Shown: positions 4,786 through 44,512, counted from the stretch's first letter. The stretch: 46,771 bases of DNA from a bacterium (GCA_013202285.1 JABMRV010000057.1:1-46771); one strand, 5' to 3'. Program-made: numbers and translations. The notes: generated by a model not told the origin, from the letters alone.

Positions 4786-4863
4786 TTTGGGCTCCCTGGT
4801 CAAGTGATGTTGTCGAGAAGAACTGAATGCTCTACGAGGTTTTAAAATGTGTGAAGTTTTTTG

Positions 4864-5465: not shown

Positions 5466-6137
5466 CTAATTTTCAAATGGGATAGAAATTTCAATCACGG
5501 TTCGGTCAGGATCATTGAAGATTTTCACCGTATCGCTTATACGCTTCAGCAGTAAATTGTAGTATTCGACATCAAAACCATCGTTTCCGAAATCTCTTGA
5601 AACACATTCAACCGATAGGGTTGCGTGCGATTCCCTTGAGTCAATTGAGACGGTGATTGTTTCGTCGGGATTTGAGACGGCTAATACCCGCCTGATGTAT
5701 AAGTAAAGCGCTTGCTGCACAAGAAAAGGACTGTTCATTATAGTAATCGGTTCGTTTGAAAACCGTGTTTTGAGATCGACTTTTTTCATATCTGCAAAAC
5801 GCTGACAGAGATCGGTCAGATTTTCCACCAAACGGTTTATCTCAAACTCACAAACGGGATCATCGACACCGTGAGCGAATGTATTAAGCCGTTTGATAAT
5901 ATCGACACCGCGCTGGGTCTGATTTGATACTCTATCGGCGAAACGCTGCAACCGTTCGTTCGGTATCGGTTGACCACTCTCAACCCCGTTCAGAAGATCA
6001 TCAAGTAATCCGGCTGTCTGATCTATAATTGAAATAACATTGTTTAATTCATGCGAAACAGATGCTGTTATGGCACCGAAGAATGCCAGACCATTTTCAC
6101 GCAACATCTGCTCCTGGTTGAGATCGTCATTGAGCAT
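5466..6137 (-). CDS. Histidine-kinase-like protein with an H-box but a degenerate ATP-binding domain (candidate Spo0B/ChpT-type histidine phosphotransferase)
   Basis: ITASVSHELNNVISII is a HisKA H-box. The C-terminal half (QQALYLYIRRVLAVS...ECVSRDFGNDGFD...) lacks a recognisable N-box Asn, a DxGxG G1 box and a GxGLGL G2 box. All of these are present in the neighbouring kinase 6513..8222. There is no TM segment. The start overlaps the stop of the upstream receiver gene by 11 nt. Confidence 0.75.
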   Translation of the reverse strand: MLNDDLNQEQMLRENGLAFFGAITASVSHELNNVISIIDQTAGLLDDLLNGVESGQPIPNERLQRFADRVSNQTQRGVDIIKRLNTFAHGVDDPVCEFEINRLVENLTDLCQRFADMKKVDLKTRFSNEPITIMNSPFLVQQALYLYIRRVLAVSNPDETITVSIDSRESHATLSVECVSRDFGNDGFDVEYYNLLLKRISDTVKIFNDPDRTVIEISIPFEN

Positions 6138-12370: not shown

Positions 12371-12454
12371 ATGAAAAGATCAACAATCATTTCCCCGTGT
12401 TGTCTCTGTGCGGTATTGCTGCTAATAATAACGGCTCCGATTTTAGTCCGGGCT
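12371..12454 (+). other. Sec signal peptide of the giant protein
   Basis: Basic N-terminus (KR), hydrophobic core CAVLLLIITAPIL, and VRA/E cleavage-site pattern. Confidence 0.75.
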
Positions 12455-15400
12455 GAAATCCAGACCACTCCCAAGAGCAGTCATATTTCACCCGCGGATG
12501 AGACTTATTATCAGGAGGTAATACAACCGGCGAAAGCGAGGGGATTACTGACCGAAGCGCAGAATGCTTTCCTTAAACAATACAAGGCTCAACAACGAGC
12601 CGTAGCGAGTCGTATCGTCGATTTCCAGCCTCCATCCCGTGACAATCAGGGTGGACCTGACGAGTCGGGTTACGAATGGCGGGACAGTTACGAGAGACAT
12701 GGTCCGACATACGGCTGGATCGATGTCAGCGGATTCGACGGCGTAATCGACATCGGAATGGGTGACGACACAAACCACGGACCGTTCGACCTCGGCTTCG
12801 ATTTCGTGTATTACGGCGAGACTTTCAACTCAATTCGGATGTGCTCGAACGGCTGGGCATCCTTCACATACGACGGTAGTGACTATCGGTGGACCAATTA
12901 CAACGGATTCCCTGGTGAAGGGGCTCCTGCGAATTTTTTCGCGGTCTGCTATATGGATTATGACCCTGAACTCGGCGGCGGCAGCTACTATTACTGGTCG
13001 GACGAGAATATGGCGGTTCTGACCTGGGAGAACATCCCCTATATCGGCGATGAGAACCTGCGCTGGAGCTACCAGATGATCCTGACCCCGGACGGAATGA
13101 TAACGTACCAGTATGCACAGGTCAGCGGACCGGAAGATGAGATTCTCGTCGGTTTTCAGAATGCCGACGGCAGTCTGGGATTCGCAATTGCGATGGGACA
13201 GCAAGGCTACCTCGAAAATGGACTGGCGATTGGTATCTCGGACAACTGGGTCGATGAGAGGGATGTGAGTGAGGTGGGGTATTTTGATACAGATGGGATT
13301 TCATATCATGTCGCTGTTGCTGGAAACTATTCCTTTATAGCAGATGGTGAAAGTGGTCTTAGAATAATTGACATATCTAACCCTGAGAATCCCGACGAAT
13401 TAAGTTCCATAAATACACCAGATGTTGCTCGTGATGTTGCGGTTCTCAACAACTATGCTTATGTGGCAGATTTTAGTAGTCTTCGAATCGTTGACATTTC
13501 TGATCCGGCGAATCCATCTGAGGTTGGATCATACGATACACCAGGAAATGCTATGAGCGTTTCTGTTCGTGGAAATTACGTTTACGTTGCAGACCTCGAA
13601 AGCGGTCTTCGTATAATTGATGTATCCGATCCTGAAAATCCTGATGAAATTGGGTTTTTTGATACCCCTGATAGGGCGTGGGGTGTCACTGTGATAAATC
13701 ATTACGCATATGTGGCAGATGATCAGAGTGGACTTAGGGTGATTGACATTTCAGATCCGGAGAATCCGAGTGAGGTAGGCTCTTACAACACCCTAGGAAA
13801 TGCTGGTGATGTCATAGTTGTTGGTGATTTTGCCTATGTGGCTGATGGCAGAAGTGGTTTACATGTAATTGATATTTCTGACTCTCAAAATCCGAGCCTG
13901 ATAGGAACATATGATACACCAGGTGGAGCTGGTGATGTTACTGTCATCGGAAACTATGCTTATGTTGCTGATGATCAAAATGGTCTATGTGTAATTGACA
14001 TTTCTGATCCGAACAATATGGAGGAGGCTGATGCTTACGATACACCGGGAAATTCATGGGGTGTTTTTGTAATCGACGATTATGCCTACGTTGCAGATCA
14101 GGAAAGCGGTCTCCGCATCCTCGACGTATCGGACTTCGAGAAGCCGGACATGGCGTTGTCAACTAACCAATTGGACTTCGGTGAGGAGTGGGTCGGTTAC
14201 AGCGATGACATGATCATCGAAATCCGGAACAACGGCGACGCCGACCTGACCGTATCGGACGTTCATGTTGGGGCGGTCGGCTTCAGTACCGATTTTAACG
14301 GCTGGTTTGTTGTCGAACCGGATGGTGTTCATCAACTGACCGTCACTTTTGCGCCCGAAGGAACGGGCAATTTGGGGGGGGGGCTGACTATTATTTCGGA
14401 TAATCCCGGCTGGATAGAACAGGGCATGGTCGATTTGAACGGCATCGGCAGGGACAACCCGCCGGTGATGGTCGTTAATCCGGACGCTATCAGCACGGAT
14501 ATCAATATACCGGACAGCGAAGAGCACACGTTGACGATTTCCAATGGCGGTAGTTCGGTCCTTGAATTCGAGATCTTTCACAGGACAACCAGCAGACCTG
14601 CACGCGATGAAAATGTCCGTACATTACGCAGTATCACCTCCTCTAATTCACCCCTCCGAAACCCAGGGGAAGTAATCGATCTTTCCACTCCTGAAAACAT
14701 GGATGTGAGCGAGGTCGGTGCTCCACGTCGAGACCAGTTGGAACCGGGTTTCCTTGGTCGATACTACCACACCCAGGCAGATGCCAGTCCGCCGTTCCCG
14801 GGAGAGCTGATCATGGAGCGCATCGATGATCTGATCAACTTCGACTGGGGCGATGGCGGTCCTGGCGGCGGCGTGAGGAATGACAACTTCGGCGCACGTT
14901 GGACAGCCTTGTTCACTGTTGAGGAAGCCGGAGAATACACCTTCCGGGTAACCTCCGATGACGGTCAGAGGCTATATATCGACGGACAGCGGATCATCGA
15001 CAACTGGGTTGACCATGGCATGGAGAATCACGACATGGCACTCGACCTCGAACAGGGCGACCACGAGATTACGTATGAGTTCTACGAGAACAGTGGAGGT
15101 GCCGGGGCTCAGCTCCGCTGGATGCCTCCCGGGGAGGGTCAGTTCGAATTCATGCAGGGCTTCCCGTTTATCCCGTGGCTTACATGCGACCCAAACGAAG
15201 GCACCATCGAGGCTAATCAACAGATGGATATAACCGTAACCCTGATAACCGATGATCTTATCGAAGGCAGATATGAAGCAGATATCATTTTCCAGTCGAA
15301 CGATCCGCGATATGAAGAACAAGGTTTCCGCGTTCCTGTGGTGTTAAATACCACCGGTACAGCTCAGATTGAAACTGCTTGGGAACCCGGTTACTTTCAG

Positions 15401-18400
15401 GATCCACCTGTTGTCAATTATAACGTGCAATATGATCCTGAACTATATACGGGTTTCCCCTACCGGATACCGGTCACCATCAGCAATACAGGTAGCGCAG
15501 ACCTTGAAATATCCGGAATTGCATCCGATGAAGATGCCAATCCTGTATTCACTGCAGAACCCACTCAACTGACTATACCACCCGATAGACAGGAAGTTGT
15601 GGACTTCATCTTTAATGCTCCTTTGGATGCACCGGGTGAATACATTGCTGATATGATAATCAGTTCAAATGATGCTGATGAAGTCGATCGGGAATTACAT
15701 ATTCCGGTTTACGCCCAACCTCTCGCCGCTCCTGTAATCACGGTTAACCCAAACAGTATCGAAACAACTATTGACATTCCAAATGAGGAAGTACACACCC
15801 TGACAGTCACCAACGATGGAGGAGTAGGACTTGATTTTCTGATCGAACATACAATAATCCGTGAGCCGGATCGTGATGCGGCGACGCGGGGGTTGCGTAG
15901 AGTTGATCGAAAGAATGTGCCGCAGCGTGATAATCCGGGAGATGAGCTGCGGTCATACAACGTACCATACAATAGTACTTCAGGTCTGGCATGGGACGGT
16001 GAACTGATGTGGGGAAGCGCGTACAGCTCACAGAGGCTGTATGCCCTTGATCCTGAGAATGGTCAGGTTGTTTATGACGTGGCGGTAGGATATTCTCCTC
16101 TGGCGATGACCTTCGACGGCGAACTGCTCTGGGTTGGAGTCTGGCCGGGAAGCAATGTCCGGCTTTATGACCTCGAAGGCAACCAGGTTGAATCGATCAA
16201 CATGCCCTCCTCACCGGTTCACGGTCTGGCTTCAGACCTCGAGAATTACGTATTCCTCAATTCAAACCACACGATTCGGGTCCTCACAATTGACAATCGA
16301 CAGCAGGTCGGTTCCTTTAATCCCAGCGGGGCGATGGCGAATCAGGATTTCTGGAATATTCTGTGGGTGCCCGAGCATCCCGACGGACAACTCTGGGGAC
16401 TGTATCAAAACCGGATGTACCAGGCTTTCGTTGACGAAGATAACAACTGGGCATCCCAGGCTGTTCAGAATTTCGGCATCCGCACAGAATATCAACATGA
16501 CGGTATTGCTCACGATGGTGAAAACATATGGTACGGCATGTGGAGTCCGACAACATGGTATGTGATTGATGATGGTGTTGAAGAATTACGCTGGCTTACT
16601 TACGAGCCGACTGAAGGTTCGCTCGGTTCTGATGAAAGTATGGACATTACCGTTACACTCAATACTGAGGGACTGATCCAGGGCATCTATGAAGCTGACA
16701 TGATCTTCCGGTCCAACGATCCGCAGTATAACGAAGAAGGACTGATTGTTAACGTCCTGATGAGCACTGTTGGAGAGGTGCAAATAGATGTGAGCTGGGA
16801 ACCCGGCTTCGGTGACAATCCACCGGTGGTGGATTTCAACCAGCAGTTTGATCCGGGTTTGTTCACCGGCATCGAGTACCGAATCCCTGTCTTGATTGCC
16901 AATACAGGTAACGCCCACCTGGAGATTACCAACATTGCATCTGACGAACAGGGAGAACCTGTTTTCACCGCTGCTCCCACCGAGTTGATCATCCCGCCCG
17001 ATGGTGAGGAAGTCGTCGAGTTCATCTTCGCCGCACCTCTCAATTCGCCGGACAACTACAACTTCGACATGATAATCTATTGTAACGACATTGACCAGGC
17101 TGACCAGGAGTATCATATCGGTCTGCATGCTGAAGTTGATCTGCCCCCGGTAATAACCGTAACCCCGGATTTGATCGAGGATGAGCTGATCACCGGTGAA
17201 TCGGCACAGCATCAGGTAACACTCGGTAACGACGGTCCATCGACGCTCTGGTACACCAGCGATGCTGTAGTTACCGATCAGCCCGGGAGGGATGTCAATG
17301 AGCGCACTTTGCGGGAGGTTAAACTTACGGGACCGCGCCGTGACAACCTGGGTGATCAGATTGCCACGTTCACCTGGAATCGTGCTCCGGTCAATTATTA
17401 CAAGGCTGGCGCTTCCTATGACCCGGAGACCGGTCGGATGTGGGTTTCAACTTACATCCCCAACTGGCTGGGCGCCATAACCTTTGATGAAGAATACCAG
17501 GAGTTCACTGAGGATGTTCAATCCTGGCAACCCGGTGCACAGAATCCGATGAACATCGCCTGGCTGGACGGCGTTCTATATGTCGTTGCCTGGTCGAACC
17601 AGTGGATCGGCAGGTGGGACGCCGACCGCACCAACCTCGGCAATCTCGACATGCCGCGACATCCAACCGCTATAACGTCCAGCCAGGAAAATGGCTGGTT
17701 AATAACAATTTCTGATGCGGATTGGAACAATCTGAACTTCTATACAGTAAATGGAGACCAGGTGAGCGAGATCCATCGCGTCAACTGGCGGCAGGGACCG
17801 ACAGCCAATCAGCTCAGTCGTGGAATTGGCTGGGTTGACAAACACGATGAAGGTCAGATCTGGATTAACACTCTCAATCACATCTACCAGATGTATGTTG
17901 ACACTGAAAACTGGGATCAGACTGCCACGCATGTCTCCGACTTCGCCTGGAATAACGGCAATCACCAATGGGCTGGAGTGGGTCATGATCGTTTCAACCT
18001 TTGGCTGGGAGCTTACGGACAGCCAAACTGGATTATATATGACGACGGCATTATGGAGCTCTACTGGTTTGACTGGGATCCGCAGGAGGGCTCTATCGAG
18101 CTGGACGGTGAGGAGATCATAACGATTTTCCTGGATGCGGCTGGATTAAACGAAGGTCTTTATGCGGTCGACCTGCATATTCTCTCGAATGATCCCGATA
18201 GTTCCGACGTGGTGGTTCCCGTTTCGATGAATGTGATCGGGATGGCACATATTGATGCGGTATGGGCGCCAGGATTCGATCAGGATCCCTCGGTCGTCGA
18301 TTATAACGTCATGTTCGATCCGAATCTGTTCACCGGTTCGGAATACAGGATTCCCGTTACCATCTTGAATCTGGGAACGGCGAGGCTGGACATATCCGAT

Positions 18401-21400
18401 ATTTCTTCCAGCGAAGAAGCCAATCCCATGTTTACCGCCGAACCTCTCGAACTGCAGATCGCTCCGGGTGAGGAAGATGTTGTCGATTTTATCTTTGCCA
18501 CACCTCTGGATTCTCCCGATGATTACAACTTCGATATGATAATCTATAACAATGATGTCGATGAGGCAGACCGGGAGTATCACATTGCCCTGCATGCCAA
18601 TGTTAACAGACCACCGGTGATCTCGGTCAACCCGCAGGAAGTTATCGATGAGTTGAGTACCGGCGCGGTTGCTCATCACGAGATAACCGTCGATAATCAG
18701 GGTGAGTCGCTGCTGTGGTTTATTGCTGAAATAGATGTAACAGGTGAACCCCAGCGAGATGCCGGCATGAGACCTTTGCGGCGAGTCGGCAGTGCTGCCG
18801 GAACCGGTCGCGACCGCCGGGTCGAACCAGACGACATGGGCTATGAGTGGCGCGACAACCTCGAGGATGACGGTCCGGAGTACGAATGGCTCCTTCGTGG
18901 CGATTTCGAAAACGTACGCGAATGGTCTCTGGGCGATGACGCCAACACCGGCGCACTCCAGCTTGGTTTCACCTTCCCATTCTGGGATCAGGAGTATAGC
19001 CAGGTTTATCTCGACACCGACGGCTATATGTCGTTCACCTATGCGGGGACGCAGTATAACTTCTCAGGAGAGATTCCAAATTACCCGTTGGCTGCCAATC
19101 CGGGAAGCCCAAACCACTCCATGATAGCGCAGTACCAGACCGACATGACGTCGGGAACGGAGATATGGTACTGGACTAACGAGGAAGATATGGCGGTGAT
19201 GTGGTGGGCGGGGAATCATCAGTACTATCACCAGGTCATCCTCTATGACAATGGTTATGGTGTCATGCAGTACGGTCAAAATGCCAACGGCAGATCAGCC
19301 TACGTGGGGATTAACCTCGGCGACGGCGAACATGGCTGGTATGTCGCCGCGCCTGACCAGAATTACCTCGTTCCCGGGCGGGCAATTGCCTTTGGTCCGG
19401 CTAACGTCTGGTCGATCTGGATAACACTTGACCCGCTGGAGGGCGATGTACAGCCCGGAGCTGATCCGATGGCGCTCGATATGACTCTCGATGCCTTCGG
19501 TCTCGATGAAGGTCAATACACCGCGGAAGTTCTGTTCACATCGAACGACCCGGAGACGCCCGGGGTGATACTCAACGTTACTATGAATGTAATAGGTGCA
19601 CCTGACATCCTTCTCGAATGGGAACTCGGCTGGGTGGAAGATCCCTTTGAGGACAGCATCATCGACTGGAACGCTTATTTCGATCCCGATTTATATTCTG
19701 GTTTCGATTATGAAATTCCTGTCACTGTAACAAACGAAGGCGTAGTTCCTCTTGAGATTACTGAAATATCATCAAGTGAAGGTGGAGACCCGCTCTTTAC
19801 ATCCAATCTAATTGATGTGCTTACTCTCGATCCGAATGACCAGGCAGTCGTCACCCTCACATTCAATTCCGTGAATCCAGGCGACTTCGGAGCCGATGGT
19901 GATGAGCTCTATATGGTATTCTACTCCAACGATCCGCTTGATCCGGAGGTCAACGTTCGAGTGCATGCGCAACCGGTTGGACCACCTGTAATGGTTGTGG
20001 ATCCTGATGCAATCCAGACCGAGATTGCTATACCCGGCAGTGAAGAACATGTCCTTACGGTGACCAACAGTGGTGATAATATCCTTACCATCGAGATCGA
20101 AAAGGAGATCCTCGCCATGCCGGAGAGGATGCCCGCAGATCGCGACGTAATCTCCCGTACACTGCGCAGCGTTAACCGCGATGAACCTCGTCGAGATGCT
20201 CTTGGTGACCAGTTGGGAGAATATACCTGGAATAATGCACCGATCAACAGGTACAAGAATTGCGCTTACGACTATAATAACAAGTGGATGTGGCTCGGTA
20301 CTTATAGCACGAACTGGATCAAGGCAATCTCGTTCGATGATGATTATCAGCAATTCACTACCGAATTCAACGACTTCCGACCTGCCGGAAACCCGATGGA
20401 TATGGGCTGGTATAACGGTATCCTCTATGTCCAGCCCTGGGCTAACAACTTCTTGCTAAGATACGATGCCGATGGTAACAATCTCGGCAACGCCAACTTT
20501 AACTTCCGTCCTGCCGGAGTGGCGTTCAGCCACAAGATGGGTTTGATTTTCGCGCTGGAGGACTCACCAGACAACAACCGGAACATCCATGTTATGGAGA
20601 TAGATGAAAACGGGTATCCAGATCAGCAGATCGGTTTGATCGACAACTACCGTCCGATGTGCAACAACCAGTGGATGCGTAACGTCGAATGGGTCGATGC
20701 ACATCCCGATGGTCAGTTGTGGATACACACCTCCTCGAGGGCGCTCTATCAGATCTCGGTTGACACGGATAACTGGCAGGCGATCGAGCTCACTTCACAG
20801 TTGTCCAACTTCGGCAGCAACCAGGAGTACGACGGAGTTGCGCACGACGGGTACAACCTGTGGCACGGCGGTTATAGCCTGGATCGCTACTACATCATCG
20901 ATGATGGGGTTGAAGAGATTTACTGGCTGATATTTGAACCTGATGAGGCTACTCTTAACGCTGACGATAGTACCGAGATTCACGTTTATCTTAACACTGA
21001 GGATCTCATTGAGGGCAGATATGAAGCCGATCTTGTATTCACCTCAAACGATCCGCGATACCAAGCGGAAGACTTCCGGGTCAATATCGTATTGAATACC
21101 ATTGGAGAAGCCCAAATTGAAGCGACCTGGGTTCCCGGCTGGGATGAACAGGATCCGGTCGTCGATTACAATGTCGCGTTTGATCCCGACATGTTCAGCG
21201 GCGCTTCATATACGATTCCGGTTATTATCGCGAATATTGGCAATGCCAATCTTGAGATAACGAACATCCAGTCGGATGAAGGTGGAGCTCCGGTGTTTAC
21301 CGCAGAACCTACCGAACTTGTGATCCCACCAGACAACGAAGAAATCGTCGTATTCAGATTTGAAGCTCCCATCGATGCACCGAACAACTACAATGCCGAC

Positions 21401-24400
21401 ATGATCGTCTATTGCAACGACGCCGACGAAGCGGATCAGGAGTATCATATCGCGCTGCATGCTGATGCCGCAAGCCCACCGGTGATAACCGTCGATCCCA
21501 TGGAAATCATAGACGAGCTGACAACCGGTCAGGTGGTCGAACATGAAGTCACGGTTGGTAACGACGGACAGTCAACGCTTCGTTTCACGTCGGAGTTCGA
21601 GATAACACAGGAGCCCGGTCGTGATCTCGGCGGAAGAAGCCTGCGCAGCGTCCATCGTACTGGACCGCGACGCGACGCCGTTGAGGATATCCAGGATATG
21701 ATGTTCGCCGTTATTCAGGACGGGGAAGCCTGGGGATGGCTCGACGACGTGATGATGCAGCAGGATCCTCTCCTCGACAGGAACGCGAACTATGTTACTT
21801 TCAGAACTGCAGACACCTGGAACAGTATTGATTTCGAGGAATATGACGTCATTGTTTACCCCGGCAATCGTCAATCCGCCAATTTCTACACTGCTTATAA
21901 CAATAACCTCGCACGGTTCACCGAATATCTTGACGACGGAGGTGCTGCTTATACGGAGACCTCGGATAGTAATGCTCCGATCCGCACTCCCGGCGGATTC
22001 AACAACGACCAGGGAGGCGCTTCCAACGGTGTACTGGTAGTCAGTCCCAATCCTCAGGATGACAATTACAGTTTATTTGCCGAGATCTGCCAGAGTACAC
22101 AAAACAACAACTGGAACGAAGGGGAGGTTATCGAGGGCAATTCATGGCTGCATGGATCATATTCCATCGGTCAGTTCGATAATGCCGTTGGCAATGGCAC
22201 TATCGAATGGTACCAAATGATAGCCACTCCGCAAGGATCTCAACATGCCGGAGCGATAGCTTATGGTTTAGGTGACGGCTGTGTACTCGCAGTGAGTCAC
22301 CCTATCGGTCACTGCTGGCGGTACTATAATCAGGAAGGTATGTGGGGCGGCATCGCTGCTGAGATTCTCTACTACCTTACTGAATCTGTTGCCGAAGGTT
22401 GGTTCAGCCACGATCCTGTAGAAGGCGAGATTCAACCTGGCGGCGATCCTGTAGTGATAATAGTAACACTCAACGCCGCAGGATTAGATGAGGGTGACTA
22501 CGCCGCTGAACTGCGGATTAACTCCAACGATCCCATCGATCCGCAGGTGATAGTCGCTATTTCTTTCACTGTCACCGCGGCTCCGGATCTGGTTCTCGAA
22601 TGGGAGTTGGGCTATGTGGAAGATCCGTTCGAGGACAGCATACTCGATTGGAATCTTTATTATGATCCTGACTTCTATACCGGCGTTGATTATGAAATAC
22701 CGGTTACGGTTATGAACGAAGGAGTCATAGCGCTTGAGGTAACCGAAGTCTCTTCTTCGGAGGAGGGCGAACCGCTTTTCACATCCGATCTTGCCGATGT
22801 GCTGACACTTGCCCCGGGGGAGGAAGCGGTGGTTACGCTGACTTTCTATTCCGATCAGGCTGGCGAATTCGGCGCTGACGGTGAAGAGCTTTACATGGTC
22901 TTCTATTCGAACGATCCGAACGAAGAGCAGCTTACCGTGCGGGTGCATGCCACAGTTATCGCGGGTCCGAATATCCTGGTTGACCCACAGGCGATTGAAG
23001 ATGCCATGATGACACTGCATACCTCCAACCATCTCCTCACCGTTGGAAATGACGGCGGTAACCCGCTTCGATTTGAATTTGAATTGGAGGTATTGGCTGA
23101 ACCGGAACGCGACATTGCTTCTCGTACATTGCGCCGAATACATCGGGGCAATCCACGACGAGATGCTCTTGGTGACCAGTTGGGAGAATACACCTGGAAT
23201 AATGCCCCGATCAACAGGTACAAGAGCGCCGCTTACGACTTCAACAATGAATGGATGTGGCTCGGTACTTACAGCCCCAACTGGATTAAAGCTATCTCGT
23301 TCGATGATGATTACCAACAGTTCAACACCGAATTTAATGATTTTCAACCTGCCGGAAACCCGATGGATATGGCGTGGTATGACGGCATACTATACGTCAT
23401 TCCCTGGGCAAATAATTTCTTGTTGAGATATGACTCACAGGGCAATCGTCTCGGCAACGCCAATTTCGGTTTTCAAACCTGCGGGATTGCAGTTAGTCAA
23501 GAGCTTGGTCTGCTCTTTGTTCAAGAGACCTCACCCAACAACAACCGGAACATCCATGTTGTAGAGATAGATGAAAACGGGCTTCCCGGTCAGCAGATCG
23601 GTTTGATCGACAACTACCGTCCAATGTGCAACAACCAGTGGATGCGCAACTGTGAGTGGGTCGATGAACATCCCGACGGTCAGTTGTGGATACATACCTC
23701 ATCGAGGGTGCTCTACCAAATCTCGGTTGACACGGATAACTGGCAGGCGATCGAGCTCACTTCACAGTTGTCCAACTTCGGCAGCAACCAAGAGTACGAC
23801 GGAGTTACGCACGACGGGCTCAACATGTGGCACGGCGGTTATAGTATGACCAACTATATCATTTTCGATGATAACGTCGAGGAACTCCGCTGGCTCATGC
23901 TCTATGAAGACGACATTTCTCAAGCCAATCCGGCGGACTGGGTAGTGGTTAGATACAATGAATATGAAATCGAGCCCAATCAGGAGTTGATTTTCACAGT
24001 ACGTTTGAATTCAACCGATCTGCTTGTTGGTGATTATGAGGGAATAGTCCACATCTTCAATAACGATCCGAATATCGAAGAGCAGGATTTCGAGGTTCCC
24101 GTTCTGCTTCACGTAACAGGTATAGCCCAGGATATCGAGGTTTCATGGGCGGAGGAGAATGGTTTCCCAACTTCGATCGACTGGAACAGTGCGCACGAGG
24201 AATTGTACGTCGGTCAGCCTTACGATATGATTCTCACCGTTGGGAATTCAGCGGACAGTGACGGCGATCTTGTCATCGAGGATATTGTTGCAGACGATAA
24301 CAGTTTCTCAATCGATCCGGTCGGATTTACACTGAGCTCCGGCGAAACGCAGGATGTGATAATAACATTTGAAACTGCAGACGTCCCCGGTGAGTTCGAA

Positions 24401-27400
24401 GCGGTTCTGACCCTGTTTTCCGACGACCCGGACGAGGCTGAGGTTGACATAGCCCTCTATGCCCGAGCATATCATACGTTGAATATAGAGGTTGATCCGG
24501 GCGCTCTTACTGAGGAGCTTTATACCAACCTGACTACTGATCGCCGTCTGCACCTCACCAATGTGGGTAATGATAACCGCCACTTTTCAATCAAACACGA
24601 ATTCACCCTTGCACCTGAGCGTGATGAGAATGAACGTTCTCTGCGCCGTATCGATCCCGAAGCGTCGGGACCGGTGCGTGATGCGGTTGGGGATGCGCTG
24701 TACAATGTGCAGTCACCTATTGCCAGTAATCAATACCGGAACCTGGCATACGACCCGGATCTTAACTGGATGTGGCACCAGCAGTATTATTCTCCTTATC
24801 AGATGGTAGCCTGGGATCTTAACGACTTTACTCCCGGCGATGATGCCGCGCCTCCGGTGGTTCGCCAGTGGAACAACCCACGCGGCAATCCGATGGACCT
24901 GGCATTTCATGATGGCACCATCTATGTCATGCACCTCTGGAATGCCTGGCTCGGTCGCTACGACATCGACGGTCAAGATCTCGGCGTCATGAATCTCAAT
25001 CTCGACGGAGGGAGAGTAAATGGCGTGGCTATATCTCACAGCCTCGAGAGGCTGTTCGTAACCTCGGACGCTAGCCCTTACAACGTGTATGTCTTCGACC
25101 TGCAGGGCAACCGGATTGCCAATATGGGGAGTCTGACCGCTCGAACAGGCAACAACGTCTGCCGGTCGATTGAATGGGTCGATCAGCACGATGACGGACC
25201 GCTGTGGGCGCATCGCAGCAACAGGGTCTGGCAGATAGCTGTCGATACCGAAAACTGGCTGATGACTTCCACTCCGCTGAACTTCGCTACTGTAGGGGAG
25301 CAGGAGTATGATGGAATTGCACACGACAGGTACGACCTCTGGATTGCGGGTTATAACAGCCCCAGTATATTTGTTTATGATGACGGTATGATCGAATACT
25401 ACTGGTTGTTATACGACCCAGATGAAGGAAGCCTCCAGGAGAACGAGGATATGTACATTACGGTCACTTTCGATGCCACCGGGCTTATCGAAGGCAGATA
25501 TGAGGCTGTGCTGATCATCAAACCGGAAGACCCGGATATTTACACACTTGAAGTACCTGTTTCACTGGATGTGACGGCAGCGTCCGACATTGCCGTAAAA
25601 TGGGACAGCGAGATCGGGTATCCGGAGCTTGTCGATTGGAACGCCGAAGCCGCTTATGGCGACCAGGTGTTCACGGGAAGTCAGTACGACATTACCGTTA
25701 CCGTAGAGAATATCGGCGTGATCCCGCTTAACGTGGAGGGAATTTCTTCCGACAACCAGGTGTTCACTGCTGACCGCAATGTTATCAGCAACATCGGTCC
25801 TGGTGAAGAAGTTGATGTCACTCTGACCTTCGAAGCTGCCGATCCTGGTGACTATCAGGCAGCCGTTACTTTCACGACCGATTCCGAGATTCACCCCGAA
25901 CTGGTGATCGGACTACACGCCAATGCACCGAACCCGCCTTCTATAGCCTTGAATCCCGAATCTATCGAGACAACTCTGGGGTATGACGAAAAGGAGGATC
26001 ATGCACTCTTCGTGATTAATAACGGCGGAGCAGACCTGATCTGGAACACGGAGATTGAGTTCCTTTCCGAACCGCAGCAAATACCGCAGCGCGACATCAA
26101 ATCCCGTACCCTGCGCAGTGTAGGGAGATCTTCCGGTCCGACCCGTGATAATCCCGGTGATATCGTTGAAACATTCAGTTGGGCTCGAGCCGGTGTCAAT
26201 GTTTACAAGTCTGGTATTATATGGGAAGAGGAAAACGAATTACTGTGGGTCAATAACTACAGCAACGGTCAATGGGTTGGCGCACTCGATCCCGAGGACA
26301 ACTACCGTGAGGTTCGAGCATTCCAGACATCCGGTCAGAACGGTATGAATATGATTATGCGAGACGGCATAATCTGGACTATACCCTGGCCGAACGCTTG
26401 GATCGGCAGATGGGATCGCAACGGCAACAACATGGGCAATGTAGCTAATTCACCGCGACCAACAGCAATGACATACTGTGCGGAAGAGGATATTCTGATT
26501 ACCATCTCCGATCAGGAAGGTGGAGGCATTCCTGCCTGGGATATGCGTTTCTATGAGATAAACGGCGATCAGCTTAACATAGTTGGAAACTTCAACTACA
26601 AACAGTTTGCAAATAACCAGAACAGCCGTGGAATCGGCTGGGTTGAGAAGCATCCCAATGGTCAATTGTGGATAAATACACCAAACCACTTATGGCAGGT
26701 CAAGATTGATATGCGCAACTGGGAGATCGAGGAACTGGTGCAGGATTTCAACTGGAACAACGCCGGTTATGAATGGGCTGGTATCAGTCATAATGGTCAT
26801 AACCTTATTCTTGGGTCACATAACTCTGCAACTTATTTTGTTATGGATGACGGTGTAGCCGAGCATTACTGGTTATCGAATGAGCCGATGGAAGGTGTTG
26901 CCACTCCGGAGGACAGCAGTGAAGTTACGGTCACACTTGATGCGGGTTCACTGCCCGCCGGTGATTACGAAGCAGATCTGCATGTCTTCTCGAACGATCC
27001 TGATACAGGCGATTTAGCCATATATGTTCTGCTGCACATCGCTGAGGTGCGCAATCTTGTCGCATCACCCGATTCGCTGCATTTCGGCGAGGTTCTCGTT
27101 GACTCATCAGGCGATATGACGCTGACGTTGATCAATGCCGGTAACAGTGATCTGACCGTATCGGACATGACCATCGAGGGAAACTACTTCAGCATTGATT
27201 TCCAGGATGCATTTGTGATCCCGCCAGGTGACGAAATAGATATGACGGCAACTTTCGCTCCGGGGGATGAGGGAGTTTTCGTGGGTTCCCTGACCATCAC
27301 GTCCGATGACTTCGAGGAAGAGCAGACAGTTATTCCGTTGATCGGGTGGAGCAGACCGCGCATGCCCAACATCTATGTGCTGCCTATGACACTCGACTTC

Positions 27401-30400
27401 GGCGAAGTGTATGTCGCTGTTCCTGAAGACCGGATTTTCCGCATCGGAAACGATGGCGACGGTCCGTTGCGTATAACCAACATTTTCGCCGATGAGAACT
27501 ACATTGAAGTCGATTTCGCCGGCGAGTTCGTCGTTCAGCTCGGCGAGAGCCGCGATGTGACCGCAACCTTCACGCCTCAGCAGCCCGGAGCTATTCAGGC
27601 GACGATAACGATTGTATCGATCTATGACAACGAGGAGGATAATTACCTCGTCGATGTGGTCGGTGTGGGTATCGATCCTCCGGTGATAGTTGTAAATCCG
27701 GACTTAATCGATACTGATATGGACTATGAGGATGAGGAGCAGCATGTAATCACCGTCTATAACAATGGCGGATCAGTTCTTGAATTCGATACCAATCTCG
27801 ACATTCTTCAGGAACCGCCTCGCGACGCCGTCGGGGATCGTCGTCTGCGGCAGCTCCGTCAAGCCGGTCCTGTAAGGGGTATAAACAACGACCGTGAGAT
27901 CGAAGTCCCGGATGCCACTGTTCAAATGAATGTGAAAAACGGCGATGCTTCTCCTGCAGAACTGGAATTGTGGGAGAGCTATCTCAATCTGTTAGATGAG
28001 CTTGCCGATGTTCCACGTCGGGATCTGCGCGGGGAAGCTGACGACGCCGGTTACGAATGGCGTGATGACGCGGAAGCGGACGGTCCCGAATATAACTGGA
28101 TCGACATCACCGGTGACGGACAGCGTCTGAATGCCGCTGATGACTGGAACAGTGGAGTTCTCGAATTCGGCTGGGATTTCCCATACTACGGACAACAGTA
28201 CGATGCAATGAGAGTTTGTTCCAACGGCTGGATTACCCTTGACCGCAATTACAGTGGAAATGCCATCAACCTGCCTCGACCGGTTAATGCAGCCGCTCCG
28301 AATGCCCTGTTCTTAATCAATAACTATGACCTGAACCCCGGCGCTGGCGGCTCGATGTACTTCTGGACGAACAACATCGATATGGCTGTGATGAGCTGGA
28401 TCGACGTTCCCAGATACGGCAACAACCAGCAGCGCAGCACTTTCCAGATTGTACTGGCAGGAGACGGCTTCATTAAGTACCAATACGGAACACAGCAGAA
28501 TGCCGACGGTTCAGAATCCAACATAGGCTGGGAGAACCCGAACGGACAGCTCGGAGCGAGCATCATCTACCGTGAAGACGGACGGATCAGCGAGGGTTTG
28601 GCAATCGGAATCGGCACCGGAGAGATGTGGGGACAGTGGCTGTTCTGGGAGCCGCACATGGGATCGGTCAATATCGATGGTAACCTCAATATCACCATAA
28701 CGCTGCGCGCCGGAAACCTGCCGCCGGGAGACTACATTGCAGAACTGCACATTCTTTCAAACGACCCCGATATTCCCGATGTCATCGTCGATGTAACGAT
28801 GACAATCAACTCGCTGCGCGATATAGCAGTCAATCCGCTTGAACTTGATTTCGGCGAGGTACTGGTTGCCGATGCGGGAGAGATGACCATAGACATAGAC
28901 AATGCCGGGAACGTCGATCTGACGATTTCGAATGTTACGATCGACGGTAACTATTTCAGCTCCGATTTCGCCGGTGAATTCGTTCTCGGAAGAACTGCCA
29001 GCAGTGTCCTGACTGTAACATTCACTCCAGATGCTGAGGGCAGCCATGCCGGAACCTTAACCATCACCTCGAACGATCCCGATGAAAGTGATGTCGTTGT
29101 GGATCTGCTCGGTACGAGTCGTTTCCCGATTGCAGATATTATTGTCTCACCCGAAGCGCTGAACTTCGAGACGGTGTTCGTAGGTCAGAGCAGAGATCTG
29201 ACATTCACTATCGGTAGCGAGGGAGAGGATGACCTGCGGGTGTCGAACATCACCGTCGATGGCAATTATGTAACGACCAATTTCGAGGGAGAATTTACAC
29301 TTGCTCCCGGACAGCAGCGTGAATTCAGCGCAACATTTGCTCCTGAAGCGGAGGTGATGTTTGTCGGCGAGATCTTAATCGAGTCCAACGATCCTGATCA
29401 TCGCAACGGATATTCTCTCGAAATCCGCGGCACCGGCATTAATCCGCCGGTGATAGCGGTTAATCCCGGTTTCATCGACACCGATCTTAGTTACGGCGAG
29501 ACGAACGATTACCGGGTTGTATTGTCCAACAACGGTGGAGCCGATCTGATCTGGGACAGCGAACTTGAGATCGTCAGAGAAGCAATTGGCGGGAGATACT
29601 GGATTGATTGGGCTCCGGAGAACGGCACGGTTAGTGCAGGAGCTGACCAGGATCTGATCATCACTCTCGACTCAGACCTGCTGATAGGCGGCGCTTATGA
29701 AGCAAACCTGCACGTCACATCCAACGATCCGGAGAATGCTGATGTAATAGTAAGTGTCCTCCTGCACGTAATCGATGTTCCGAACATCGACCTGTCTGAA
29801 TCAACGCTGGAATTCGGTAATGTGAACGTCGGCGATGAGGATCAAATGTCGCTGTGGATATACAACAACGGCAACGGCGCGCTGACTGTTTCGGATATGG
29901 TGATCGACGGCGTCAATTTCGTTGCTGATTTCGACTGGGAATTCGAGATTGTCCCCGGAGACAGCGCAGAGGTGTTAGTATGGTTCTCACCGGCGGAGAT
30001 CAGTGCAGTTGAAGAGATTATGACCATCATCTCCAGCGATCCAGACGAGTGGCGAATACACGTTCCGATGACGGGAACCGGCATGGGAGCTGTTATCGTC
30101 GCCTCACCGACCGAACTCGACTTCAGAGAGGTCTTTGTAGGTGAGAGCAGGGATATGACGCTAACAATTCACAACGTCGGCAACGAAGATCTTGTCGTAT
30201 CCGAAATGGTGGTCGAGGGTGTTTACTTCAGCCTCGATTTCGGAGGTGAATTCATTGTCCAGCCTGACGGTCAGTATGATATTACTGTAACTATGATCCC
30301 CGAAGAAGATGCTGTATTAACAGGAGTTATCACCATCGTTTCCAACGATCCGTTCGAGGAAGCTGGATACGAGGTAGAAATCGGCGGCATCGGTGTCGAT

Positions 30401-33400
30401 CCACCTGTGATAGTGGTCGATCCTCAAGCCATCGAAGCACAACTCGCATTGAACGAGCAGGATGAGTATGTCGTTACCATAGCCAATGAGGGCGGATCGA
30501 ACCTTATCTGGACGACTGAATTCGATCTCATCCGGGAACCCAATCGTGATAACCGCAATCGCAACCTGCGGCGTGTCGGACCGCAGTTGCGTCAGATAGA
30601 GGCTCCCTCTGCCGCGTTGCAGGACAGAGTCAAGCAAGGCAATGCGAACTTACTTGACAGAATGAAATGGGAGAACTATGTCTCGCGGTTGGAAACGGAT
30701 GCAGACCGACCGCGAAGGGACCGCCGCAACAATCCCGACGGTTATGGTTATTACTGGATCGACAGTGATGAACACGGCGATCCGGAATTCGATTGGATCG
30801 ACATCAGTCAGGAAGGTCAGAGATTGAACGCCAGCGATGACTGGAACAGCGGCGTTATCAACCTGGGATGGGATTTCCCTTGGTATGACAGCGAATACAG
30901 CGCCATTCGCGTATGTTCCAACGGCTGGATTACATTCGATAGAGATTACTCAGGAACCGCCGTCGATCTACCGCGACCACTGAACGAGGCTGCACCGAAT
31001 GCTGTTCTGATGGTCAACAACTACGATCTTAATCCCGCCCAGGGCGGAGAGATGCGCTACTGGACAAATCATGCCGATATGGCAGTCGTAAGTTGGACGG
31101 ACGTACCTCTCGACCGGAATGCCGGTGTGATAACCACATTCCAGGTGATCCTGTATGCGGATGGTTTCGTCAAGTTCCAGTATGGACCTCAGCAGAACTC
31201 AGACGGTTCACGCAGCAATATCGGCTATGAGAGCCCCGACGGGCAATATGGTGCGAGTATTATCTACCGGGAAGGCGGTCGAGTCCATGCGGGACTGGCG
31301 ATCCAGATAGTTCCAGCGCTCGCAACTGAGCGCGGCTGGATTTCCTACAATCCTACCGGAGGTGTGGTTGACAGGAACGACATGCAGGAGATGATCGTCT
31401 CATTGAACGCCGAGAATCTGGATCTGGGAGATTATGTGGCGGACATTCATATTTTGTCAAACGATCTCGATAACAGTGATGTAACGTTCAACGTATTCCT
31501 GCAGGTCGGAAGTGTTCCCGACATAGTAGTTGATCCAGAGGCTCTTTCACTCGGTGAGGTCGAAGTCGATGGCAGCGGCGATTCGACGTTAACCATCAGC
31601 AATATCGGTGATGAGATTCTCACCATAAGCAACATGTACGTCGAAGGGAACTACTTCAGTATCGATTATAATGACGATCAACTGATTATTCAACCGGGCG
31701 GCGAGTATGAACTGACGGTGACGTTCAGTCCCGTTGCCATAGCCGAGCTCTCAGCAGCGCTGTTTATCATCTCCGACGATCCGAATGAGGGCGAACTTGT
31801 CGTTCCCCTGACGGGAGTCGGGCTCGGTGAAGGCTGGGTAATACTCGATGATAATGATCCGGTAAATATCACCACACATCTGAGCGACTACTACTCACGA
31901 ACGTCGTTTACCTCTGCCGGTACGTTCGAGCTTCGTCATCTTCGCATCATGCCCTTCAATGCTGGTCCGAATTTCGATGCTCCGTGCTTCATTTACCTTT
32001 TCAATGAGGACGAAGATCATAACCTCGATGAACGTATCTGGACTTACAGGATCAATCGTCTTGAAGCATGGAATGTTAATGATTTCGACGCCAACTGGAT
32101 AACGCTCACCATACCGGAAGCGTTCTGGCACAGGTTCACGACAGGTGAATCGTTCAGCATCATCTATGGAGCGGCTCCCGGTGGAGAGTTCGTCGAACAG
32201 GAGGGCTACGGCTGGTGGAACCTGTACGATGTGGAAGCTAACGCTCATCGCAGCTATGTTTCGACGTCGCTGACCAACGACCATCGCGTCTGGGAAGATG
32301 GCGAGCTTGACGGCGATCTGTTCATCCGCGCCGGAGGTATCTATACCAATACTATCCCCAACCGTGAACCGGTTTGGGTGGACGTGCCTCAGCCAATCCA
32401 GGTCGATGATGGTTCGCTGATTGAATTCACTGTATTCGGTGAGGACGAGGATGAAAACGAAATTCTCACCATCGAATACTTCTCCCGTGACCTGCCCGAT
32501 GCCGTGGACTTCACCGATCACGGCAACGGTAGCGGTACGTTCTCATGGCATACAACGTTCGATGACGCGGGTGAATACTTTGCCATCTTCACACTCAGTG
32601 ATGGAGAACTGGAAACGCAGACTGAAGTCCCGATTACTGTGAATGACGTTAATCGCCCACCGATCTGGATCGATCCTCCCGAATCGGTCGTCGTCGATGA
32701 AGGTGAAATCCTCGTGGTTGACATGCGCAGCATCGACACCGACAGAGATTCCTTGACAGTCGTTGTCGATCTGGGTGATCTACCCAACAACGTGGTTCTC
32801 GATCCTCGCGGCAGCGGGAGAGTGCTCCTGATCTGGGAGCCCGGCTTCGAAGATGCTGGGATTTATCCGGTATCATTTACTGTTTCAGATGCCGAATTCG
32901 ATGTGACCGCTGAAGTAGCGGTAGTAGTTCGAGATGTAAATCGCCCGCCCGTGTGGGTTGAATATCCTGAGAATAACACAGTGGATGGCTATGTCCAGCA
33001 GGATCTGAACATCATACTGCAAGCTGTCGATCCTGAGGGTGGACAGGTGCAATACCGCTGGGAATACGCCGCTGATCCACCTGCCGATCCGCAGGTTGAA
33101 ACCGCGGTCGTCGCTGAAAGGTTCGATTTCACCATGTCGCCTACTCTTCGAGAGTCCGGTGAATACTACGTGCGATTTATTGCTTCTGACGGCGAGACTG
33201 AATCAGCGATCATAATACTTGTCAATATACGTCCCGACCATTATATCATCCGTCCCTCAGGTGCGGCTCACATACTGTTGCTCGATCGGGTAGTCTATTA
33301 CGGCGAGAGCCTTGTCGAAGGCGGTGAAATCATCGGTGATGTCACCTTCGATGAGATCGGTGTGTTTACGCAGGAGGGTATCGTCTGCGGCGCCTTCCGT

Positions 33401-44461: not shown

Positions 44462-44512
44462 ACTTTTCAGTACCGGGAAGAGGAAGTATCGAATCTAAAG
44501 GAGTTGTCAACA

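Follow-up and report, generated by a model that had tools for sequence, protein, structure and literature searches.

The Arg-rich motif repeated along a giant T9SS protein in the DNA analysed here (46,771 nt in full, called the window) holds up, at the level of sequence, as a real element under selection, and another protein probably docks or cuts there. Our preferred reading, at a probability of about 0.45, is that it is a portable short linear motif, disordered and read in trans, with an Arg-specific endopeptidase as the most plausible partner; such an enzyme would nick the Ig domain carrying the motif without releasing the payload module. The initial annotation, which had proposed Arg-specific processing that releases or exposes the payloads, is partly supported.

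The giant ORF (12371..42529, plus strand; 10,052 aa) carries all 11 motif copies reported earlier; every one is in frame, two of them located to within 1-2 nt, and the five example peptides quoted with them are exactly reproduced. Its product starts with a hydrophobic segment (MKRSTIISPCCLCAVLLLIITAPILVRAE) that appears signal-like by eye and contains a dedicated host Ig in 12 copies, of which 11 are split by payloads of four unrelated folds (PA14, 5-bladed propeller, NIDO-like, and alpha/beta). The C-terminal part consists of cadherin-like/Big_9 repeats and then a T9SS type A C-terminal sorting domain (Por_Secre_tail; 42290..42511, plus strand, aa 9974-10047), which matches PF18962 at 28.6 bits (cut-off 27) and TIGR04183 at 30 bits (cut-off 23). 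Judged by the sequence of this domain, the product is a T9SS type A cargo. A T9SS paralogue of 1185 aa is encoded at 1246..4803 on the minus strand (PF18962, 43.6 bits).

The motif is bipartite, with E-P-x-R-D-x3-R-x-[LVI]-R-x-[VITA] followed by a spacer of 5-54 aa and then P-x-R-D. The core expression RD-x(3,4)-R-x-LR has 13 matches in the 10,052-aa protein, compared to a mean of 0.008 and a maximum of 1 in 2000 composition-preserving shuffles, and at least 14 motif copies are present, including three beyond the range given in the initial annotation. Paralogous units are only 22-59% identical, yet the motif columns are invariant, unlike the surrounding Ig; when the 11 junctions were aligned with two foreign ones, the invariant columns were P, D, R, L, and R in the motif but only N and G in the Ig. 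Codons for the invariant Arg (CGC/CGT/CGA/AGG/AGA) and Leu (TTA/TTG/CTG) residues vary synonymously across copies; therefore, what is repeated and maintained is the protein sequence rather than the DNA.

Motif copies in the split Igs of the giant ORF are all on the plus strand. In U1 (Ig halves at 14459-14584 and 15176-15352), the arm to the PA14 payload (14594..14734) reads RPARDENVRTLRSI, a 45 aa spacer, and APRRD. The 5-bladed propeller of U2 (halves 15728-15859 and 16577-16765) is preceded by EPDRDAATRGLRRVDRKNVPQRD at 15863..15931. Other propellers follow QPGRDVNERTLREVKLTGPRRD in U3 (17279..17344; halves 17144-17275 and 18050-18235), PADRDVISRTLRSVNRDEPRRD in U5 (20132..20197; halves 19982-20113 and 20909-21097), EPERDIASRTLRRIHRGNPRRD in U7 (23099..23164; halves 22967-23095 and 23879-24118), APERDENERSLRRIDPEASGPVRD in U8 (24611..24682; halves 24479-24607 and 25391-25576), and IPQRDIKSRTLRSVGRSSGPTRD in U9 (26081..26149; halves 25934-26062 and 26855-27040). 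The alpha/beta payload of U6 (halves 21476-21607 and 22400-22576) comes after EPGRDLGGRSLRSVHRTGPRRD at 21611..21676. NIDO-like payloads follow EPQRDAGMRPLRRVGSAAGTGRD in U4 (18746..18814; halves 18611-18742 and 19418-19591), EPPRDAVGDRRLRQL with a spacer of about 50 aa and VPRRD in U10 (27812..28024; halves 27677-27805 and 28634-28807), and EPNRDNRNRNLRRV with a spacer of about 45 aa and RPRRD in U12 (30536..30721; halves 30401-30532 and 31325-31507). The terminal P-R-R-D of U1, U10, and U12 lies 45-60 aa beyond the R-x-LR core (aa 785-788, 5215-5218, and 6114-6117). Two sites reported earlier have the P-x-RD part only, and both are present: QPPSRD (12626..12643, plus strand) adjoins the N-terminal NIDO-like module, which has no host Ig, and PPGPRRDDFGD (4528..4560, minus strand) is placed on the outgoing arm of a propeller-carrying split Ig in the 1185-aa paralogue. 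A second propeller-carrying split Ig in the paralogue has no motif.

The motif had been described as following a short Ig domain, but the preceding element is a half-domain. It comprises strands A-C of an ASH/HYDIN-type Ig, and strands C'-G come after the payload; motif and payload thus appear to interrupt one Ig domain at its C-C' connection, with the motif as the outgoing arm. From strand C, the chain runs through the motif and payload into a short return connection and would then complete the Ig with strands C'-G. We infer the pairing of the two halves from model confidence values, profile matches, and an unsplit copy. A complete-Ig HMM matches only profile positions of about 57-117 directly after each payload, and directly ahead of the motif it gives a weak match restricted to positions 26-52 in 4 of 11 units. 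Half-domain HMMs find first and second halves that alternate strictly, with 12 strong matches for each. When halves were joined in silico with the motif and payload taken out, six spliced Igs matched Pfam in one stretch over the splice, five of them to PF22544 (ASH/HYDIN/CFA65/VesB-like Ig) and one to BACON_2, covering positions 14-97 of a profile of about 100; two of the six pass the gathering score (28.6 and 30.7 vs. 25.5). The halves alone had no match to Pfam Ig models. An unsplit host Ig (29444..29770, plus strand, aa 5692-5800) has neither motif nor payload, its halves being bridged by REAIGG only, and thus provides a natural control for the two halves forming one domain; its match to profile positions 17-95 scores 16.9 bits and stays under the cut-off.

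Across 151 representative homologues and the 10,052-aa protein, 430 half-pairs occur in order, of which 412 are split by 26-700 aa, 15 are unsplit, and 3 are more than 700 aa apart. At least 35 payload clusters use this one Ig subfamily as a general socket. In contrast to the long, disordered outgoing arm, the return connection is short and ordered, with a conserved DDG-x-x-E-x-x-W and high pLDDT; no conserved Arg motif was found on the return side of the payload. Some units have minimal arms (e.g., EPERGPRRDNPGD); therefore, the 16-20-residue Arg-rich extension is not required for geometric closure of the insertion.

AlphaFold2 models indicate that the motif is a disordered, exposed loop outside any folded core, which goes against the refuting condition set in the initial annotation, that it belongs to the flanking folds. 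The model of the U3 propeller unit (pLDDT 90.6, pTM 0.80) falls below pLDDT 50 only at residues 53-68, which are the motif (DVNERTLREVKLTGPR), while block-mean pLDDT is 88-97 in both Ig halves (these are confidence values, from which contacts were not read). The U6 alpha/beta unit modelled with both flanking complete Igs (pLDDT 82.6) falls below 50 only at residues 174-194, the whole motif (GRDLGGRSLRSVHRTGPRRDA), so the motif is given no placement even with neighbouring domains included.

Conservation of the motif extends well outside the present locus to many related proteins of uncultured bacteria, which goes against the second such condition, a lack of conservation beyond the locus. The family sample consisted of the 10,052-aa protein and the 151 representatives, which are <50% identical to one another; it was retrieved with a profile containing motif columns, which introduces a mild bias. 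There were 183 motif matches, 157 of them (86%) no more than 25 aa downstream of a half-Ig. Among 153 copies, the core Arg residues are kept at 153/153 and 152/153, and 122 copies have a D-to-R spacing of 3. In motif-using proteins, part 1 is found at 153 of 210 junctions and P-x-RD at 195 of 210, at propeller, alpha/beta, NIDO-like, and PA14 payloads. The claim that the motif precedes every non-Ig payload is correct for the 11 nested payloads here but not family-wide, where 34 of 131 split-Ig proteins use neither part. Motif usage follows the protein or lineage, not the payload type.

The motif also occurs in a second context, the F-G loops of cadherin-like repeats. Two tandem copies with a terminal PRRD (40379..40558, plus strand, aa 9337-9396; LRDAGPVRVLRTA, then DRDSTQERQLRSV, then QPRRDD) lie in a cadherin-like/tandem-95 repeat, in the loop that leads to its last strand (SFVLTINPVNDPP). 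A degenerate copy (40898..41005, plus strand, aa 9510-9545; IRDGMMQRAIRRV, then TPSRD) is in the equivalent loop of the next repeat. Both contexts display the loop inside a beta-sandwich, but the cadherin-like loop has no orphan half-domain.

In alpha2-macroglobulin and C3, the MG6 beta-sandwich is broken by an insert with a flexible, protease-accessible stretch, and in C3/C4/C5 a furin site inside the split MG6 domain separates LNK from the anaphylatoxin domain (PMC9156758). The shared sandwich, to which both chains of C3 contribute, keeps them together as a single molecule after the furin cut (PMC9156758). The present protein is likewise predicted to have a beta-sandwich interrupted by an insert with a flexible stretch. 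Homology was rejected (Foldseek TM to A2M/C3 chains only 0.13-0.20, reflecting generic Ig arrays; CGEQ absent; no Pfam A2M families), and the likeness is an analogy only. Unlike C3, the present protein has no thioester and has 11 insertions with interchangeable payloads. The C3 furin site is a run of arginines, whereas the motif here is R-x-[LVI]-R and its cleavage is putative. A minimal furin site is R-x-x-R, and the SKI-1/S1P site is R-x-aliphatic-x. The present cores, R-[TGPSNRQ]-L-R, contain the minimal R-x-x-R and are exposed in the models; as a lead only, they share P4 Arg, P1 Arg, aliphatic P2, small P1', and aliphatic P2' with convertase/subtilase sites. An optimal furin/kexin site (R-x-[K/R]-R) was rejected because basic P2 is absent from all motif cores; R-x-[KR]-R has only 3 matches in 10,052 aa, none at the cores, with two of them overlapping the RPRRD that ends the U12 motif. 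Convertase sites have no counterpart of the flanking E-P-x-R-D and P-x-R-D, and no convertase-like gene was found in the window.

Gingipain polyproteins (RgpA/Kgp/HagA) of Porphyromonas gingivalis are T9SS cargo that undergo multi-site Arg/Lys-specific processing, and their adhesin fragments remain non-covalently associated (PMC10319874). The present protein is also T9SS cargo, but gingipains carry their own C25 catalytic domain and it carries none. Pfam and NCBIfam scans of the giant ORF and its six neighbours within the window found no C25-like, trypsin-like, or other peptidase, so none of the Arg-specific secreted proteases suggested earlier for a search of the genome is encoded there; gingipain-type self-processing is not supported, as a C25 or other Arg/Lys-specific catalytic domain is absent from these genes. 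Gingipain cuts fall between domains, with fragments associating through adhesin-binding motifs, whereas the motif site here is intradomain. The integrin beta I domain is inserted in the hybrid domain as a nested beta-sandwich insertion with its termini close together. Here, too, a globular domain appears to sit in a loop of an Ig-like sandwich, but integrin-type insertions are single and fixed and have no conserved disordered arm motif, unlike the present general socket. Oomycete RxLR motifs lie no more than about 60 aa past the signal peptide in small effectors, usually followed by dEER; this identity was rejected, since the present protein is bacterial and 10,052 aa long, with its copies at internal positions (aa 745-9520), and the letter match is coincidental.

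These features bear differently on the possible functions. Cleavage between an Ig and the next module that frees or exposes payloads in a gingipain-like manner, as the initial annotation supposed, would fit an exposed, disordered, Arg-rich, conserved loop in a T9SS cargo, and gingipain polyproteins are indeed cut at multiple sites (PMC10319874). We now regard this as very unlikely. The payload is nested; therefore, a single cut would leave it covalently bound via its C-terminus to the second Ig half (strands C'-G), and because that half is predicted to pack on the first (strands A-C), release is not implied by one cut. The return side has no matching Arg site, and neither the ORF nor the window encodes a peptidase. 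More generally, because the motif lies inside domains, cleavage there would not obviously release anything, and the case for a processing site is weaker for it. What stands of the earlier proposal is the site itself, as the exposed, disordered R-x-[LVI]-R loop of the models is a credible protease site. A functionless linker that hitch-hiked during duplication of a half-Ig-plus-linker unit within or between genes is disfavoured and highly improbable; the modules are paralogous and motif use tracks protein or lineage, but the motif is invariant among divergent units while the Ig around it is not, codons differ synonymously, and the motif persists across representatives <50% identical and recurs in an unrelated domain context.

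An intramolecular role, in which the charged arm aids folding or solubility of the nested insertion or acts as an electrostatic latch on an acidic payload or Ig surface, seems unlikely. In its folding-aid version, the arm would prevent the orphan first half-Ig from losing solubility or register before its second half is made ~260 residues later. The arm always comes after an orphan half-Ig, 11 similar split Igs per chain carry a risk of mis-pairing, and only the outgoing connection is long and disordered. However, many units fold, judging by models and conservation, with a minimal arm or no motif; 34 proteins of the same architecture have none; the cadherin-like F-G loops carry the motif without any orphan half; and AlphaFold2 docks it nowhere. 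A multivalent binding epitope is a somewhat doubtful but more serious possibility. Arg-rich loops on rigid beta-sandwich scaffolds along a fibre would bind an anionic partner without cleavage, such as the bacterium's own anionic LPS or polysaccharide, eDNA, sulfated or uronic polysaccharides, or a receptor. The loops lie inside two types of beta-sandwich rather than between domains, at least 14 copies are spread along one protein, and tandem copies occur. The 10,052-aa protein has a net charge of -1397 and 0.4% Lys, Arg makes up 18% of the outgoing arms vs. 3.1% elsewhere (a six-fold enrichment), and the motif loops are its sole basic patches; in the family comparison, motif users are more acidic than non-users. 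This acidity is just as compatible with an electrostatic or binding role, but the conserved Pro, Asp, inter-Arg aliphatic residue, Val/Ile, and exact spacing exceed generic electrostatic needs.

Recognition in trans is the most likely function because the motif combines strong conservation, fixed spacing, disorder, and protein-by-protein use irrespective of payload fold. The most plausible reader would be a secreted Arg-specific endopeptidase cutting at R-x-[LVI]-R, with predicted subsites of P4 Arg, P2 aliphatic, P1 Arg, small P1', and aliphatic P2'. Such a putative cut would nick the host Ig and leave the payload attached, and by analogy with C3 and the gingipain adhesins, the fragments may be held together through their common beta-sandwich.

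The giant T9SS cargo protein of this contig (10,052 aa; 12371..42529, plus strand) is built around immunoglobulin-like domains that are split by their payloads. The initial annotation described a short Ig domain ahead of the payloads; profiles, splices, and an unsplit copy indicate that this segment of about 45 residues (PPVITVxP...H.LTV.N.G..L.F) is not a whole domain but a first half. An HMM of the giant's own complete Igs matches directly after every payload with its second half only (positions about 57-117 of 121), and directly before the Arg-rich motif at positions 26-52 only, weakly, in four of 11 units. HMMs of the half-domains detect first and second halves in strict alternation, with 12 strong matches to each. 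Six half-pairs spliced in silico, each a first half joined to the second half behind its payload, yielded a Pfam Ig match (PF22544, BACON_2, OCRL ASH) that ran in one stretch across the splice (positions 14-97 of 100 in the PF22544 profile; two of the six above gathering score), and half-Igs alone had no Pfam match. One of the 12 host Ig copies is naturally unsplit (aa 5692-5800; 29444-29770), with its halves joined by REAIGG, and it likewise gives a single-stretch Ig match, although a weak one. In unit U1, Pfam places PA14 at residues 111-228, followed by Ig profile positions 49-91 only. Based on these five lines of sequence evidence, payload and motif are predicted to interrupt a single Ig between its strands C and C', with a complete Ig next. 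We infer the pairing of the two halves from model confidence values, profiles, and the unsplit copy. Because the payloads are plugged in sideways, the Igs (the giant's modules are 22-59% identical to one another) form a continuous stalk from which the payloads hang. Standard domain scans report "short" or "half" Igs because the domain is split, and these are now parsed as pieces of one Ig.

The motif lies in the outgoing arm, which is the linker from the first half-Ig to the payload. All 11 motif coordinates in the initial annotation map into the giant (nine are exactly in frame, and the other two are off by 1-2 nt), and the peptides quoted there are reproduced in its translation. Three extra copies fall outside the originally annotated range (two at aa 9337-9396 and one at aa 9510-9545). 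The giant has 13 matches to the core RD-x(3,4)-R-x-LR; composition-preserving shuffles gave a mean of 0.008 and a maximum of 1. The motif is bipartite, consisting of part 1 (E-P-x-R-D-x3-R-x-L-R-x-[VI]) and part 2 (P-x-R-D). The spacer between the two parts is short in eight units (about 5-8 residues) and long, at 45-60 residues, in U1 (14594-14734), U10 (27812-28024), and U12 (30536-30721). The long spacers of U10 and U12 have similar stretches in common (ELELWESYLNLLDEL and LLDRMKWENYVSRLE). When the 11 junctions were aligned with two from other organisms, P, D, R, L, and R of the motif were invariant, and only N and G were invariant in the preceding Ig. Synonymous codons for the invariant Arg and Leu differ from copy to copy, so what is maintained in the repeat is its protein sequence; this variation, together with conservation in proteins less than 50% identical, rules out a DNA-level repeat or recombination site. 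The N-terminal region of the giant (aa 1-700; 12371-14470) contains a NIDO-like module preceded by QPPSRD and without a host Ig, thus P-x-RD is also present at an ordinary boundary of an N-terminal module. After this module come an LVIVD-repeat propeller (choice-of-anchor B-like) and a complete Ig of the choice-of-anchor D-like type.

Structure prediction with AF2 indicated disorder in the motif. The model of propeller unit U3 (aa 1589-1960, 372 aa; 33-sequence alignment) has a mean pLDDT of 90.6 and a pTM of 0.80. Its pLDDT falls below 50 at residues 53-68 only (DVNERTLREVKLTGPR); block means are 88-97 in both Ig halves, and the return connection is confident. The payload is modeled as a 5-bladed propeller like those of bacterial and plant glutaminyl cyclase and olfactomedin. 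The model of alpha/beta unit U6 (aa 2910-3530), which includes the complete Igs on either side, has a pLDDT of 82.6, and values below 50 occur at residues 174-194 only (GRDLGGRSLRSVHRTGPRRDA), which is the whole motif. Because the motif is the sole stretch below 50 in the two models, it is predicted to lie outside the folded core in both payload contexts, and it docks on no neighboring domain in the model. A role in the folded core, for example as a propeller velcro strand, is ruled out by the models for part 1 and the spacer, and in the alpha/beta unit also for P-R-R-D. The propeller-unit model becomes more confident from approximately the R-D of PRRD on.

The motif is conserved outside the locus. 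Of three relatives detected by a word-index search, two have both motif parts and one has P-R-R-D only. The same type of search with the 13-sequence junction alignment gave no match at E ≤1e-3, an uninformative outcome given the short profile and the huge database. An exhaustive profile search against 1.84 billion representative proteins matched 13,055 proteins at E ≤1e-3 and 975 at ≤1e-30, many of them multi-module giants, with the motif kept in proteins less than 50% identical. The best 150 of the 13,055 matches, together with the giant, contain 430 ordered pairs of first and second halves, which are split by 26-700 aa in 412 cases, unsplit in 15, and more than 700 aa apart in three. Among 186 propeller units, 99 have part 1 (loose pattern) and 162 have P-x-RD; the corresponding numbers for 226 units with other payloads are 54 and 82. 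All-against-all BLAST grouped the non-propeller payloads into 35 clusters, including YWTD/NHL-like propellers, several alpha/beta modules, and jelly-roll-like modules. The motif is found with the alpha/beta, NIDO-like, and PA14 clusters; other clusters lack it. This variety of unrelated payloads suggests that the split Ig is a general plug-in architecture for giant surface proteins.

Motif use follows the protein. Part 1 is used by 68 proteins, at 153 of their 210 junctions, and P-x-RD occurs at 195 of the 210; 29 proteins have P-x-RD only, and 34 have neither part. The proposal that the motif stands directly before every non-Ig payload therefore holds for the 11 nested payloads of the giant but not for the family. 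The consensus of the 153 copies is E-P-E-R-D-x3-R-[STAGN]-[LVI]-R-[SRGN]-[VTIA]-x(about 7)-G-P-R-R-D-[DEN]-[PAL]-G-[DE], and the D-to-R spacing is exactly 3 in 122 of them. In seven family members that lack the Arg-rich motif (P0081, P0084, P0107, P0111, P0120, P0136, and P0143), the outgoing arm often carries another conserved motif of the [IL]GFYADESR type (e.g., "rnigfyadesr," "rdiafyadesr," and "rnygdyadrsrev"), which suggests that linear motifs specific to particular lineages are generally placed in this arm. In family member P0013, a payload-free host Ig around aa 1931 keeps part 1 in a 22-residue loop (ILAEPGRDQNRRIVRSAGGDDFLR); this loop and the giant's unsplit copy look like before or after states of payload insertion or loss. 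A related-locus search with single unit U7 found one locus, inside another giant ORF and without usable context, and family member P0001 is on a 3.6-kb contig without informative neighbors; a contig search for the response regulator of the window returned no record.

The motif also has a second structural context. There were 183 motif hits in 152 proteins, and 157 of the 183 lie within 25 aa after a first-half Ig. Some remaining hits follow divergent half-Igs. Others, including the giant's three extra copies, lie between the ADDG.G and final F.LTI.PVNDPP strands of cadherin-like/tandem-95 repeats, which is the F-G loop of an unrelated beta-sandwich. Some copies are in tandem, with the P-R-R-D of the first also serving as the start of the second. 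This second context and the tandem copies show that the motif is portable; in both contexts it is inside a domain and on a loop.

The giant is acidic (18% Asp plus Glu; net charge -1397), and its C-terminus is a T9SS type A sorting domain (Pfam and NCBIfam). Lys makes up 0.4% of the giant and 0.8% of its paralogue in the same window, compared to 2.7-8.2% in neighboring cytoplasmic and membrane ORFs. Lys scarcity was considered as a correlate of motif use and rejected: Lys is scarce across the family (median 0.71%, with values below 0.1% in some members), and motif users (median 0.55%) have only a little less of it than non-users (0.94%), so it fails to discriminate between them. Motif users are more acidic than non-users. 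Possible reasons for Lys scarcity include protease avoidance, protection from chemical modification, and acidic surface-protein adaptation. The paralogue (1246-4803, minus strand; 1185 aa) contains two propeller-bearing split Igs as well as a CarboxypepD_reg-like domain and a T9SS C-terminal domain. The P-R-RD noted before its propeller is present in the arm of the first split Ig (PPGPRRDDFGD); the second (aa about 455-790) has no motif.

Other ORFs in the window encode two histidine kinases, a response regulator, a SulP transporter, a CCA/polyA-polymerase-like enzyme, and a PEP-utilizing enzyme. The best named relatives of the last neighbor (about 50% identity) are from Candidatus Hatepunaea, Calditrichota, Zixibacteria, and Bacteroidota, which points to an uncultured FCB-group bacterium as the probable source. 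The PEP/pyruvate-binding ORF (44504-46678, plus strand; 724 aa) looks N-terminally short: relatives at ≤55% identity have about 1060 aa, often with a nucleotidyltransferase domain, and its two closest relatives (79-92% identity) also have 721-727 aa. A 223-aa ORF (5466-6137, minus strand) with a HisKA domain only adjoins a complete histidine kinase and may be a fragment. Among the payloads, the alpha/beta family has a strongly conserved His/Cys stretch (consensus VGHPxGHCWxNxNxxGMWGS; VSHPIGHCWRYYNQEGMWGG in U6, about 22290-22330, giant aa about 3309-3320) and a second conserved segment, ERFxEYIDGGG...ET. These stretches matched no Pfam or NCBIfam family, and the His/Cys stretch could be a catalytic or metal site.

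Conserved motifs in disordered loops are a hallmark of recognition by another protein. The motif is conserved, has fixed spacing, and is disordered on loops inside beta-sandwiches throughout a protein, whatever the payload fold. We infer that it is a short linear motif read by another macromolecule, and functionless hitch-hiking appears very improbable. Our first choice, with a probability of roughly 0.45, is limited proteolysis at R-x-[LVI]-R by an Arg-specific secreted endopeptidase. The candidate site would have Arg at P4, an aliphatic P2, Arg at P1, a small P1', and an aliphatic P2', a layout that resembles minimal furin and SKI-1-type sites and that we treat as a lead. The ORFs neighboring the giant in the window encode no peptidase. 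A cut in the arm would fall within the host Ig, so that the domain would be nicked and the payload would stay attached. Payload release, proposed in the initial annotation as a possible outcome of cleavage, is for this reason also very doubtful.

Arg makes up 18% of the arms vs. 3.1% of the rest of the giant. A multivalent binding epitope for an anionic partner is a less likely explanation than proteolysis, but it is the leading alternative. An intramolecular role, as an aid to folding or solubility or as an electrostatic latch, is rather unlikely; minimal-arm units exist (e.g., EPERGPRRDNPGD), which indicates that the Arg-rich extension is dispensable for closing the insertion. An extended form of the proteolysis reading, to which we give little credence, is that the giant is a precursor cut once per arm into a fiber of about 12 pieces held only by split beta-sandwich complementation. 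Each fragment would carry a payload and second half-Ig at its start and the first half of the next Ig at its end. The principle is common to C3 MG6 and donor-strand-complemented pili; single-gene origin would set the proposed fiber apart. If true, this would be a secreted modular surface filament, non-covalently concatenated from the product of one gene, and its modules could be exchanged, shed, or mechanically released.

Limited proteolysis without payload loss has precedents. Alpha2-macroglobulin and C3 have LNK and a bait or anaphylatoxin insert in MG6, with furin processing there in complement members (PMC9156758), and processed gingipain fragments remain non-covalently associated (PMC10319874). 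Nested beta-sandwich insertions, and protease sites within such inserts, are known kinds. The use of one Ig subtype as a serial general socket, the portable Arg-rich motif in one arm, and the very large family size are new. The arm, propeller unit, NIDO-like units, and alpha/beta payload matched no Pfam or NCBIfam family. A PDB sequence search found weak NHL/YWTD propeller repeats only and no family for the arm or split socket, and searches of the available literature turned up nothing relevant on a split-Ig socket, on giant modular proteins secreted by T9SS, or on secreted proteins depleted in Lys.

These proteins represent a large unannotated family of giant T9SS surface proteins in uncultured bacteria, in which one Ig subtype is the universal socket. 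In many members, the same disordered Arg-rich motif is present in one arm of every plug. As a cleavage site or binding epitope, the motif would be a handle on the maturation or attachment of giant adhesin-like proteins. A protease site would predict nicked but assembled fibers, and a binding epitope would predict multivalent attachment to an anionic partner.
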